Below are positions 1,171 to 8,110 of a stretch of 42,640 nucleotides of DNA, in pieces. The notes beneath the pieces were generated by a model. The model searched no databases. It was given only the letters and a program-made list of their open reading frames with translations, and was not told the origin of the DNA. The first letter of the stretch is position 1; each line of letters begins with the position of its first letter. The DNA comes from Candidatus Binatia bacterium. Its GTDB lineage: Bacteria > Desulfobacterota > Binatia > UBA9968. The translations under genes and the position numbers were made by a program. The DNA lies in the NCBI GenBank assembly GCA_050735075.1, contig JBOHVJ010000474.1:1-42640 (forward strand), written 5' to 3'.

Positions 1171-1210
1171 TCTCACCAAGAGATTCCGAGATTCATACTG
1201 AAAAATCAGT

Positions 1211-1236
1211 CCCCCCTCTCCGGAGGGGGGCTTTTT
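1211..1236. terminator. bidirectional rho-independent terminator
   Basis: An 8-bp G/C stem cccccctc / gagggggg (1211-1218 and 1223-1230) closes a tccg loop. It is followed by ctttttc on the plus strand and preceded by aaaaatcag, giving a U-run for the minus-sense transcript. It sits between convergent gene sets. Confidence 0.7.
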
Positions 1237-1357
1237 CAATACCCATGCTATCGAACATTTGTTCTAATTAAGTTAACCTACCAGTCAAGTAGGGAATGCC
1301 TTCCCGGCAATCCCTAGTGGTTTAGTGGGGAATCGCGATACCCTTATCTTCTCTGCT

Positions 1358-5368: not shown

Positions 5369-5429
5369 GCTATGCTCGTTGTGGAGTGCAGGACTCGGGC
5401 ACTTTGGCTTTCCTCTCTTCTTTGTTGCG

Positions 5430-5470
5430 GAAACCCCCTAGGAAGCTTGCTTTGTTCCCTAGGGGGTTTC
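5430..5470. promoter_or_regulatory. perfect 13-bp inverted repeat (hairpin or dimer-binding site)
   Basis: gaaaccccctagg (5430-5442) and cctagggggtttc (5458-5470) flank a 15-nt spacer. The element lies in the gap between gene 5475-5687 and the primase gene. No clean U-run follows on the minus strand. Confidence 0.6.
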
Positions 5471-5474
5471 TGTT

Positions 5475-5687
5475 TCAGTGAGTGCGGATGTTTGCCTTTA
5501 CAGGCTCCTCGATCCACTCCCATGTGTTACGGTGCCAAATGTACCGGCCTTGGTAATAGTGACGACTGTTGTTCCTTTGGTGCTTACGAAGAATAATACC
5601 TTCCCATTCAATTCCGGCAGTAAGCACAACCCCATGTCTGGGGCCGCCTACCGCCCTGCCCTTAAGCATTGTGCAATTCTCGTTCAT
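5475..5687 (-). CDS. hypothetical protein (70 aa)
   Basis: ORF-track ORF, co-oriented in the operon, overlapping the upstream gene end. No motif recognised. Confidence 0.55.
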   Translation of the reverse strand: MNENCTMLKGRAVGGPRHGVVLTAGIEWEGIILRKHQRNNSRHYYQGRYIWHRNTWEWIEEPVKANIRTH

Positions 5688-6003
5688 TTCGGTTAGCTAA
5701 TTCATCGATCGTAGCGGCGATTATCGTATAATCCCTGATTTGCGCAGCCCACACTCGTAACTGTTCGGCGTAGCACGCAGGTTGGCTGAGACTGCTGTCC
5801 TCATCAAAGCGATTGAGCGGCGACGTATGAAGGTCAATACTGAGTGCGGCAACCAAGTTGATCCACCGGTCATGTGTCTCGCCGTGCATCACGGTGTGCA
5901 GCGATTCCGCAAAGTCACGATACGGATGCAGTCGGATTTCATTGGCGAGTGCATGTAGAAGTTGCGATTCGGTGCGGCACTTTAGTGCATTCATGGTGGC
6001 CAT
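5662..6003 (-). CDS. hypothetical protein (113 aa)
   Basis: ORF-track ORF, co-oriented. No motif recognised. Confidence 0.6.
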   Translation of the reverse strand: MATMNALKCRTESQLLHALANEIRLHPYRDFAESLHTVMHGETHDRWINLVAALSIDLHTSPLNRFDEDSSLSQPACYAEQLRVWAAQIRDYTIIAATIDELANRNERELHNA

Positions 6004-6030
6004 TCCAGGGGATTGGAGTAGTAAGAGAAG

Positions 6031-6207
6031 CTACGACTTACGGCAGTAGCGGTTCATCTCTATGCCGGTGATTTCCTTGCCGCTAGGCAATTCGATCACA
6101 CAGTTAGGGTTGTATGAAGTACCTTTGCGAGAGAGAATGTACTCTGCGTCTTCTATAGCTAATTGGTTGTCGCGTGCTGTTTTGAATGGTTCTGGATTGA
6201 AGTTCAT
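6031..6207 (-). CDS. hypothetical protein (58 aa from MNFNPEPF)
   Basis: ORF-track 6031-6222 trimmed to the ATG at 6207, which has GGGAG upstream. That ATG overlaps the stop of the upstream micro-ORF (ATGA). Confidence 0.6.
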   Translation of the reverse strand: MNFNPEPFKTARDNQLAIEDAEYILSRKGTSYNPNCVIELPSGKEITGIEMNRYCRKS

Positions 6208-6290
6208 TTCGGTGGCTCCCAACTATTGATAACCCAAAGCAGTAACGCTATAAATAGTAACGCTACAGCGATTTTGCCTTCGGTGGGCAT
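6204..6290 (-). CDS. 28-aa single-pass membrane peptide
   Basis: Below the ORF-track cutoff. AAAGGAA SD lies 7 nt before the ATG at 6290. Product MPTEGKIAVALLFIALLLWVINSWEPPK. Its TGA overlaps the ATG of the next gene (ATGA). The 9-nt direct repeat agcgttact x2 is explained by the repeated A-L-L codons. Confidence 0.5.
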   Translation of the reverse strand: MPTEGKIAVALLFIALLLWVINSWEPPK

Positions 6291-6818
6291 TAGGAGATTC
6301 CTTTATTGGGGAGGGTTGGAGCCCCGGAGCCTTGCGGAGTTTGCCGAACGACCTACACGAACCAGCATTCGGATTGGAAAAATTCGGCTTGATCACTGCT
6401 AAGGCTCCGGGGTGGCTATTGAGTTATCTATGACTAGCCGGGGAGGGTCACTGGCTTCTATGCGAGCCACGGGGGCAACTCGCTCCACCTATCCTCCCCG
6501 GCCAACCAAGGCAGACAAATCATGCAGTCAGCGGGGCCTAGCCACTAGTCGCATTCACCGGGCGTGCACAGTCCCGGATTTTCTGAGACCCTCAGAGCCG
6601 TAGGACTCGCTCTTTATAGGTCTCATAGTGCGCTAGCCCGACTCGAACGGGCCGGAGTTCCTGGGTTGACAAAACACGTTGTCACTCCCGATCCCTCGCA
6701 GCGCATCACTCCCCCGGTGGGAGCTTTAGGTGACAACGGCTATATCTCTCGCTTACCGCTGTCTTATCGGGTGCTGGCTGGTGGCCCGACGACCAGAAGA
6801 GAAACCCGAATTTGCATG
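6291..6818 (-). ncRNA. candidate large structured RNA locus (family unknown)
   Basis: There is no minus-strand ORF >=60 aa in 528 nt of an otherwise tightly packed operon. Several GC-rich nested helices are present: 6431-6446/6493-6508, 6322-6331/6403-6412, 6585-6590/6619-6624 and 6678-6685/6730-6737. G-U wobbles work only in the minus sense. The locus lies downstream of a promoter-bearing 70-aa gene. Boundaries are unknown. Confidence 0.4.
6628..6705 (-). ncRNA. non-canonical tRNA-like element (acceptor stem plus consensus T-arm)
   Basis: Minus-strand 78 nt. A 7-bp acceptor stem TGCGCTG/TAGCGCA (one G-U) stacks on the T-arm GCCCG-TTCGAGT-CGGGC. Discriminator is C and no CCA is encoded. The D-arm is aberrant, the anticodon hairpin loop is 6 or 8 nt, and the variable region is 14 nt. 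It is not a standard cloverleaf. Confidence 0.4.
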
Positions 6819-7031
6819 TCATGCAGAAGCCAGGCTCACTACAATCTCGTCCTCTGCGCCCTTCCCCAGTGCCTTTACAGTGTTCTTGGGGAGGTAGAGA
6901 GTCTTGATCGCGGCATCCGGGTCTTCCGCCTTGTACTGGTAGGTGCCGGGGGTCTCCTTGGCGTACGCCAATCGGACCTTCACAACCTTGCGGGCCGGCT
7001 TCTTGACGGCGGGGGCTTCCTCGTCGGTCAC
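6819..7031 (-). CDS. hypothetical small protein (70 aa, GTG start)
   Basis: ORF-track 6819-7154 trimmed. AAAGGAGATAGGAAA precedes the GTG at 7031. Product VTDEEAPAVKKPARKVVKVRLAYAKETPGTYQYKAEDPDAAIKTLYLPKNTVKALGKGAEDEIVVSLASA. The longer version would cover its own promoter. Confidence 0.65.
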   Translation of the reverse strand: MTDEEAPAVKKPARKVVKVRLAYAKETPGTYQYKAEDPDAAIKTLYLPKNTVKALGKGAEDEIVVSLASA

Positions 7032-7070
7032 TTTCCTATCTCCTTTTGTCAGTGAAGCTCTGTGGGGACA

Positions 7071-7099
7071 ACGGTAGCGTACTCGTTGATTGCTGTCAA
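7071..7099 (-). promoter_or_regulatory. sigma70-like promoter TTGACA-N17-TACCGT
   Basis: Read on the minus strand: -35 TTGACA (7094-7099), a 17-nt spacer, and -10 TACCGT (7071-7076). The -10 lies about 40 nt upstream of the GTG at 7031. Confidence 0.45.
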
Positions 7100-7255
7100 C
7101 TGTTAGCCACAACACGGTTACTTTGTGTGTATAGTCGGAAATGTCCGATTCCATAGTGGACTTTGCGACACACTTTCACGATGCAATTTAGGGGTGTTCT
7201 AGTATTTTTCGGATTTTCCAGCAAAACGTTTCATTTTGTATATATATGAATTTTT

Positions 7256-7477
7256 CTAGCGCAAATACCCGTAATTGTCTGGGTTGGACAGCTCGTTGAT
7301 GGCACGAATTATCCAGATGAAGATCTCACGCAGCATTTCTAGCGGGTCTTGGTCGATGCCTAGAGCCTCGCGGATGAACCAAGATGCCGCTACGTAGAAA
7401 AGAAACAAGACCAGCAGGAACATAAACACTCGCTTAGCCACTGTGTTCTCCGCAGTACCGGCATTCATGATCAACAT
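7256..7477 (-). CDS. membrane protein (73 aa)
   Basis: ORF-track ORF with the hydrophobic segment RVFMFLLVLFLFYVAASWFI. Confidence 0.6.
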   Translation of the reverse strand: MLIMNAGTAENTVAKRVFMFLLVLFLFYVAASWFIREALGIDQDPLEMLREIFIWIIRAINELSNPDNYGYLR

Positions 7478-7594
7478 GATTACCTGTTCGGTTACACCTA
7501 TGCTGCCGGTAGGTTGAATCTGATTTGGTTTTTCGCTTACTAGGCCATACCCGATTACATGTTACAGCCCATCCACTGAGTGATTGTGTCATTA

Positions 7595-8110
7595 TTACAC
7601 ATCTCCTCTCTTCAGTCTTCGCATGAACACGACTGCATGTTGAACAGCAGCAAAGGCATCTTTTCCTTTTACTGGTCCGAGCTTCCAGCGAGTCAAACGA
7701 TCACGAGTTACCCCAATACGCAGTGATCGAGGCTGGTAGCTTAATGGAATGTTCATTCGCCATAGCGAGAAGTCCAATGCTGCGTTAATTCGCACTGGGC
7801 TGAGTACTTCATCCCCTCCAATCGTTCCGATATGATCGAATCTCTCCGTCACTACATGTATGTTGTGCTTTTCAGATGAAGGCCTCGGCTCCAAGAATAG
7901 CGGGAACTCTTTCTTGATCAGGTCTAGGGCGTCTCTGATTTGCTCGTTTTCTGGTCCTCCGAACTCTCCGTATTGATACGCTTGAATATTTCGGAGGATT
8001 CTCTCAGACTCGTCTGTAAACGCCCTTGGATGGACTTTGAAGAGTGCCCATCCAGTTCTCCCGCCGGGGTCAAAGCTGATGATGGTTGTGGCTCTATGGT
8101 TTGTTCCCAT
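7595..8110 (-). CDS. RuvC-like Holliday junction resolvase
   Basis: 171 aa. The N-terminal IISFDPGGRTGWALF matches the RuvC-fold first catalytic Asp motif. Later acidic residues are VVTERFD and KGKDAFAAVQHAV. Confidence 0.7.
   Translation of the reverse strand: MGTNHRATTIISFDPGGRTGWALFKVHPRAFTDESERILRNIQAYQYGEFGGPENEQIRDALDLIKKEFPLFLEPRPSSEKHNIHVVTERFDHIGTIGGDEVLSPVRINAALDFSLWRMNIPLSYQPRSLRIGVTRDRLTRWKLGPVKGKDAFAAVQHAVVFMRRLKRGDV

Follow-up and report, generated by a model that had tools for sequence, protein, structure and literature searches.

The window analysed here, the whole of a 42,640-bp contig (C474) that forms part of a 601-contig metagenome bin, is a siphovirus-like phage genome with nearly all of its tightly packed genes on the minus strand. 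The stretch from 6291 to 6818 is the one large noncoding gap of this genome, and it houses a 78-nucleotide (nt) transfer RNA (tRNA) look-alike. The look-alike keeps only the "top half" of a tRNA, a 12-bp stack of acceptor and T stems with a canonical T loop, and it probably derives from a tRNA or mimics one. The features of the locus and its surroundings are collected in Table 1.

At 57.4% guanine plus cytosine (GC), with 62.8% in the look-alike, the locus stands above the contig as a whole (52.3%). It has the lowest minimum free energy among 79 equal windows of the genome, its folding z of -3.27 is the third lowest of the 79 (genome mean, -0.72; standard deviation, 1.26), and with the flanks included z falls to -4.95. 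An 11-nt long-range complement (6813-6803 with 6390-6380) lies within it. Several known kinds of content were considered for the locus and rejected. These were a hidden gene (no frame is opened by any single stop-codon reassignment, and no open reading frame [ORF] of the locus matches a Pfam or PHROG family); a group I or II intron, riboswitch, or ribozyme (no Rfam match at the locus); the known large phage RNAs (GOLLD, ROOL, and others in Rfam 15, with only two chance-level opposite-strand matches over the 528 nt); a replication origin with iterons (no direct repeats at the locus); and an RNA anti-CRISPR (just one 10-bit chance match to a CRISPR repeat model, in a bin without a CRISPR array). 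Across the window, Rfam at gathering thresholds gave zero matches, and no intrinsic terminator was found in 5400-7700.

Table 1. Features of the noncoding phage locus and its neighbourhood (positions of the 42,640-bp window)
Feature	Coordinates	Strand	Remarks
Structured ORF-free locus housing the tRNA look-alike	6291..6818	-	528 nt; GC-richer; no ORF of at least 40 amino acids (aa) on the sense strand
tRNA look-alike: acceptor stem, remodelled middle, T arm, discriminator C	6628..6705	-	78 nt; relaxed ARAGORN gives exactly these ends
Acceptor 5' strand, TGCGCTG	6699..6705	-	pairs with TAGCGCA at 6629-6635
T arm, GCCCG-TTCGAGT-CGGGC	6636..6652	-	directly abuts the acceptor 3' strand; 5-bp stem, canonical T loop
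Central hairpin, TGACAA-CGTGTT-TTGTCA	6667..6684	-	in the anticodon-arm place; -4.8 kcal/mol, not unusual
Leader hairpin, GCUCCC-ACCGG-GGGAGU	6708..6724	-	6 bp; -9.3 kcal/mol; ends 2 nt before the first base of the look-alike
Trailer hairpin, two-tier	6584..6625	-	-19.2 kcal/mol, z = -3.46, 0/200 shuffles as stable; starts 3 nt past the discriminator
CGTTGTCAC, perfect 9-nt complement of look-alike positions 21-29 (GTGACAACG, 6685-6677)	6730..6738	-	competing fold
70-aa gene, KETPGTY...LY.KK family	6819..7031	-	upstream of the locus
Candidate promoter, TTGACA-N17-TACCGT	7071..7099	-	upstream of the 70-aa gene; under the threshold of the consensus scanner, not called
28-aa hydrophobic micro-ORF, MPTEGKIAVALLFIALLLWVINSWEPPK	6204..6290	-	directly after the locus; AAGGA motif 9 nt before ATG; predicted ORF

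The structure that the sequence-only reading had drawn for the look-alike was confirmed throughout, from the acceptor stem, T arm, T loop, and discriminator to position 8, the altered middle, and the 14-nt variable stretch. Six of the seven acceptor pairs are Watson-Crick, the last being G7-U66. The T loop reads T54 T55 C56 G57 A58 with the closing pair G53-C61, and the T arm folds alone at -8.0 kcal/mol (z = -2.5). A GTTCRANYC motif of the t-element type (GTTCGAGTC, 6648-6640) is present on the sense strand of the noncoding gap. The discriminator, C6628, is followed by TAT, so that CCA is not encoded. The middle is built differently from that of a tRNA. Position 8 is C, not U, and the place of the D arm holds only a mini-hairpin, CGA-GGGA-TCG, with a GGG run at positions 17 to 19, where the D-loop G18-G19 would fall. 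The central hairpin is symmetric, which leaves a loop of 6 or 8 nt without U33 and R37. The minimum-energy fold of the whole is a three-way junction of the acceptor stem, one long irregular arm, and the T arm. Because this one irregular arm replaces both the D and the anticodon arms, the look-alike is unable to decode; it is not a working tRNA.

ARAGORN calls the look-alike only at relaxed 95% thresholds, as a "tRNA-Thr(tgt)", in a drawing that has a 3-nt spacer, 2 of 4 D-stem pairs, 3 of 5 anticodon-stem pairs, and C37; at default settings it is not called. The Rfam tRNA model RF00005 gave no match at its gathering score, nor at E ≤ 10 on 1301, 551, and 116 nt, and the 116-nt Rfam search listed a single match (10.4 bits, E = 4.4). 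Of the features of a canonical tRNA, the look-alike has the T54 T55 C56 R57 A58 loop and a 7-bp acceptor that stacks on a T stem of 5 bp; it lacks a D stem of 3 to 4 pairs, U8, a 5-bp anticodon stem with a 7-nt U33/purine-37 loop, and a score above the detection threshold. A transfer-messenger RNA (tmRNA) was rejected too, none being found by the ARAGORN tmRNA mode, default or relaxed, or by Rfam. In its default mode ARAGORN finds no tRNA or tmRNA across the window, in keeping with the earlier remark that no canonical tRNA gene lies elsewhere in it. At 1182-1257 (minus strand), ARAGORN at 90% thresholds calls a "tRNA-Ser(gga)", which we regard as noise because shuffled windows yield 0.63 matches each at the same setting.

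It is therefore very improbable that the look-alike serves as a tRNA-Thr(UGU), as the relaxed call would have it, or as a +1 frameshift suppressor whose anticodon loop has 8 nt. Codon usage would offer such a tRNA some work, ACA making up 24% of the phage Thr codons versus 16% in the bin, but the bin already holds a tRNA-Thr(UGU), the D and anticodon stems are as incomplete as described, and C stands in place of U8. The frameshift suppressor, one of four readings proposed from the sequence, finds no support in the same anatomy: a D stem and a canonical anticodon arm are both lacking, neither U33 nor R37 occurs in the 8-nt loop ACGUGUUU, and the Rfam tRNA model is silent.

How often such a minihelix would appear by accident was estimated by shuffling. 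The motif counted, on both strands of the window, consists of a 7-bp acceptor with at most one G-U pair, a 5-bp T stem, a TTCRANY loop, and 35 to 65 nt between; it was defined after the look-alike was seen, which is a caveat. The locus used for the shuffles, by comparison, was delimited by the absence of ORFs, independently of the look-alike. The real window holds one such motif, and dinucleotide-shuffled windows gave it 4 times in 400; T arms of this kind number one in the 42.6-kb window versus 0.35 expected per shuffled window. When the 528-nt locus itself was shuffled and its sense strand scored, the minihelix appeared in 0 of 40,000 sequences and the T arm alone in 54 of 40,000. Relaxed ARAGORN called 1 of 6,000 shuffled loci and, in its -ps mode, gave 0.05 matches per shuffled window. 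The minihelix is unlikely to arise by chance, and we take the look-alike as tRNA-related rather than accidental because of its rarity among shuffles of a locus that was delimited without reference to it.

These figures also bear on the idea that the look-alike is not related to tRNA and is either plain chance or a three-way junction with a T-loop-type hairpin inside an RNA of about 530 nt, for example, the leader of the 28-aa membrane peptide gene. The structured state of the whole locus and its 11-nt long-range complement speak for this idea; the Rfam tRNA model finds nothing to score, the fold depends on its context, and relaxed ARAGORN matches turn up in 5% of shuffled windows. Nevertheless, we consider this explanation quite unlikely, given that no shuffled locus reproduced the minihelix, that the locus matches no known large RNA family, and that the 7/5 stacking, G53-C61, T54-A58, and the GGG at the D-loop position all agree with tRNA numbering.

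The reading that we tentatively prefer is that the look-alike is a tRNA-derived processing handle, similar to a t-element, that is cut by RNase P and 3'-end enzymes. Of the four possibilities raised by the sequence-only reading, this one fits best because the acceptor/T minihelix, the part recognised by RNase P, RNase Z, and the CCA-adding enzyme, is intact; the look-alike also lies on the sense strand of a noncoding leader, with a stable hairpin 2 to 3 nt off each end. In such a scenario, a long transcript would fold into the minihelix, host RNase P would cleave between A6706 and U6705, and host 3'-end enzymes would cleave or trim past C6628, after which the CCA-adding enzyme may append CCA. 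The upstream mRNA would thereby end in the leader hairpin and the downstream RNA would begin with the trailer hairpin, while a small tRNA-shaped RNA would be set free. A 7-bp acceptor stem is a major determinant for RNase P, and a tRNA mimic of Mycobacterium smegmatis that has one is cleaved and given CCA (PMC4201824); in plant mitochondria, noncanonical t-elements determine where RNase P and RNase Z cut mRNAs (PMC1920247). A type-A RNase P RNA (292 bits) and a protein of the CCA-adding/poly(A)-polymerase family are both encoded in the bin to which the contig belongs.

Several observations, together with the isolation described below, weigh against a processing handle. Folded alone, the look-alike is not unusually stable (z = -1.28), and between 0 and 4.5 kcal/mol, varying with the context, must be spent to force the minihelix. 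Nor is the fold robust: in the context of 6830-6280 the acceptor pairs have probabilities of 0.62 to 0.78 (the G-U pair, 0.38), but in two other contexts only 0.01 to 0.03. Pairing of CGTTGTCAC with GTGACAACG is incompatible with the central hairpin and, in certain contexts, also with the acceptor stem, and could be a switch or simply noise. With respect to the enzymes, no bin protein passes the family cutoff for RNase Z, RNase Z-like proteins falling below it, and the host enzymes are in any case assumed, since the contig may be misbinned. CCA is encoded by 32 of the 38 bin tRNAs but not by the look-alike, which furthermore has U1-A72 and a C discriminator.

As far as sequence comparison reaches, the look-alike is an orphan with no relative in any collection searched, and it falls outside every described RNA family. 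In blastn searches with 901-nt and 93-nt queries, the DNA of the look-alike and its locus found nothing above chance among 50,697 phage records, and blastn plus tblastx revealed no similar DNA in the bin itself. The look-alike DNA does not occur in 400 genomes of the phylum, from which its 24-nt 3' half is absent within 3 mismatches; in 300 genomes of the class, a single-sequence covariance model gave four matches at 26 to 27 bits, all without the T loop. Four pattern scans of viral contigs and two of metagenome contigs returned no copy, and a 20-mer from the 3' half is absent from 241 million metagenome records. The closest primase among 5.8 billion protein clusters is 54% identical to that of the phage and the next group 44 to 47%, and the 11 related-phage loci (primase 44 to 54% identical) hold no tRNA, similar DNA, covariance-model match, or comparable gap. 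The relatives offer no evidence of conservation at the locus because the whole stretch between the RuvC-like gene and a 70-aa gene at 5475-5687 is phage-specific.

Such isolation is also what a dead tRNA gene might show, namely a onetime phage tRNA (perhaps one with U1-A72, such as Asn or Gln) whose middle was recently replaced or scrambled and which is now functionless. This explanation, which we regard as somewhat unlikely, is in line with the missing CCA, with a call by relaxed ARAGORN only and poor D and anticodon stems, and with a position in a fast-changing, lineage-specific insert of ORFans. A looser viral scan moreover returned one true phage tRNA-Asn(GTT) with the acceptor TGCGCTA/TAGCGCA and the same T loop. 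That match was forced by the search pattern, and the remainder of the tRNA is unlike the look-alike; because it was found, U1-A72 acceptors of the look-alike's kind exist in Asn tRNAs. On the other hand, the parent tRNA was found nowhere in the collections searched: for a source tRNA of the form TGCGCTG...GTTCRANTC....TAGCGCA, the 185,579 species-representative genomes yielded no real tRNA. (The 19 matches to this pattern, L012 to L030, are conserved coding sequence from Acidobacteriaceae and Rhodocyclaceae without a T stem and fall into two families, each of near-identical stretches; they show how a pattern of this sort picks up look-alikes from high-GC coding DNA.) The hairpins on either side and the GC-rich, structured surroundings look organised, and the decay would have been uneven, with 12 stem pairs and a 7-nt T loop perfect and a 46-nt middle that scores nothing against the tRNA model. 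Slow pseudogene drift is hard to square with this unevenness, whereas a recent rearrangement is not; the degenerate tRNA proposed from the sequence would therefore have to be a rearranged gene, since uniform decay would not leave such a pattern.

Two further explanations deserve hardly any credence. One is a host tRNA fragment of the phage attachment site (attP) type; integrative elements often carry the 3' half of a tRNA (PMC9897764). The suggestion of an attP remnant was not borne out by comparison with host tRNA genes or by the genome and metagenome scans, the 3' half resembling none of the 38 tRNAs of the bin, and we rejected it because, in addition to the lack of a host tRNA match, no integrase was seen among the 40 larger ORFs scanned and the acceptor 5' strand, which an attP fragment does not need, is present too. 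The other is that an ORF across the look-alike is the real product. The short ORF noted earlier does exist, a 37-aa frame (6623-6736) with an internal ATG at 6706, which would make a product of 27 or 37 aa. It has no family match, however, and its GGGGGAG motif, buried in the leader hairpin, stands only 2 nt from the ATG, compared with Shine-Dalgarno spacings of 8 to 9 nt at the neighbouring genes.

A freed minihelix with CCA might also act as a decoy or sponge that soaks up host defence or toxin enzymes recognising the acceptor end of tRNAs or their elbow. Acceptor ends are attacked by the known defence systems Cas12a3 (PMC12851939) and MenT toxins (PMC7450476), and the look-alike lies in an accessory insert with its own candidate promoter, where counter-defence genes usually sit. 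We nevertheless hold a decoy to be improbable: the bin shows no sign of such a defence system, a CRISPR array was not found, the element is a single unconserved copy, and the reading is purely inferential. The version of it put forward from the sequence, a decoy for anticodon nucleases, gains no support, since a 7-nt loop with U33 and R37 is absent and there is thus no anticodon loop to mimic. A bolder possibility, to which we assign a low probability, is that the 528-nt locus as a whole encodes a new and thus far unique phage RNA. Its tRNA-shaped module would be excised by RNase P, receive CCA, and act in trans as a sponge for host enzymes or defence nucleases that bind the acceptor end or elbow of tRNAs, or it would work as a switch to turn on the structured leader ahead of the 28-aa membrane peptide gene; the 9-nt pairing of 6738-6730 with 6685-6677 would then decide whether the minihelix forms.

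Turning to the genome around the locus, the structural genes run in the order terminase, portal, protease, major capsid protein, and tail genes, followed by a helicase and exonuclease and then by Sak4, UDG, DNA polymerase A, and a 734-aa Prim-Pol/D5 primase-helicase. The 40 larger ORFs scanned include no integrase, RNA polymerase, or tRNA-related enzyme. About 1.9 kb at 5690-7592, consisting of ORFans and the RNA locus, is phage-specific and is bordered by two conserved genes, one for a RuvC-like 171-aa protein (7595-8110) and the other the 70-aa gene at 5475-5687 just upstream of the primase. The insert that includes the RNA locus is accessory, specific to the lineage, and situated in the replication module.

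Within this insert, the look-alike begins 113 nt past the stop codon of a different 70-aa gene (6819-7031), on the predicted transcribed strand, and the gene is probably cotranscribed with the locus. By word search, the 70-aa and 113-aa proteins of the insert are orphans; an exhaustive search placed the 70-aa protein in a small unannotated family with the motif KETPGTY.YK...LY.KK and 14 weak relatives among 1.8 billion representatives. In the one relative whose neighbourhood was looked up (P0093), an RNase T gene comes immediately afterwards, without an RNA gap. The AlphaFold model of the 70-aa protein is a small beta-barrel (pLDDT 76), and its best PDB look-alikes, the OB-type domains of EF-P and eIF5A, are all insignificant (E of about 0.2, TM 0.5). 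The candidate promoter upstream of this gene has a partial echo nearer the look-alike: TAGCCGTTGTCACCTAAAGC (6727-6746, minus strand) resembles TACCGTTGTCCCCACAGAGC (7058-7077, minus strand), which comprises the -10 box and start region of the promoter, at 17 of 20 positions with one indel. A good -35 box is missing upstream of the second copy, and elsewhere the motif recurs no more often than expected by chance. On the other side of the locus, a putative small membrane peptide after a long structured leader, together with the 11-nt complement in that leader, recalls type I toxin mRNAs.

Two features of the related phages were seen in passing. In four of them (L004 1339-4361, L006 834-3317, L041 101-2308, and L044 1-2569) DNA polymerase A is split into two ORFs of about 395 to 409 aa and 279 to 282 aa, separated by 1 to 4 small ORFs, among them one of YAcAr type; the polymerase of the window is a single 675-aa ORF. 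The end of one related contig (L041 6790-8420) is a perfect fold-back palindrome of about 1.6 kb, centred near 7610, which was probably produced by faulty assembly at the end of the genome.

Should the look-alike truly be processed, it would be a case of tRNA punctuation in a bacterial virus. A phage without tRNA genes of its own would be borrowing the tRNA-end machinery of its host to cut and stabilise its messages or to make a small tRNA-shaped RNA, and it would add to the growing signs that stripped-down phage tRNA mimics serve roles other than decoding. As a single, unconserved copy, its present value is mainly that of a well-characterised candidate.

Phages also encode small, structured, stable non-tRNA RNAs, such as species 1 and 2 of T4, that are matured by the tRNA-processing machinery; those RNAs sit inside clusters of real tRNA genes, whereas the phage described here has no tRNA gene at all. 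Integration-site fragments of tRNA genes share with the look-alike a partial tRNA-like sequence that relaxed tRNA finders call, but they match half of a host tRNA and adjoin a recombinase (PMC9897764), neither of which holds here. The YrlA-type Y RNAs of bacteria and phages (Chen et al. 2014, PMC4201824) are likewise noncoding, with a canonical T arm and tRNA-like geometry, and the YrlA of M. smegmatis, with its 7-bp acceptor-like stem, is the mimic cited above. YrlA RNAs, however, adjoin a Ro60/TROVE gene, carry a Ro-binding helix, close the acceptor as a stem-loop, and keep the D arm. A Y RNA identity was rejected for the look-alike, which has an open acceptor stem, no D arm, and no Rfam YrlA match, and TROVE is absent from the whole bin, the window included.

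A tRNA-like module in a long noncoding transcript is also found at the 3' end of MALAT1 in the form of mascRNA, a substrate of RNase P and RNase Z that also receives CCA, while the upstream RNA keeps a protective 3' structure (PMC8457004). Unlike the look-alike, mascRNA is eukaryotic, a full cloverleaf, conserved, and experimentally proven. The t-elements of plant mitochondria (Forner et al. 2007, PMC1920247) resemble the look-alike in combining a noncanonical tRNA-like fold with a GTTCRANYC motif and an acceptor-like stem, a longer transcript being assumed in our case. They have been proposed, and partly shown, to direct the cleavages by RNase P and RNase Z from which mRNA ends arise, and they make up a functional class rather than a homologous family. 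They differ in being organellar, dispersed copies derived from real tRNAs, with mapped transcript ends, where the look-alike is a single orphan phage copy known from its sequence. The kind of element is already known, and the look-alike would be a new, isolated member of it.

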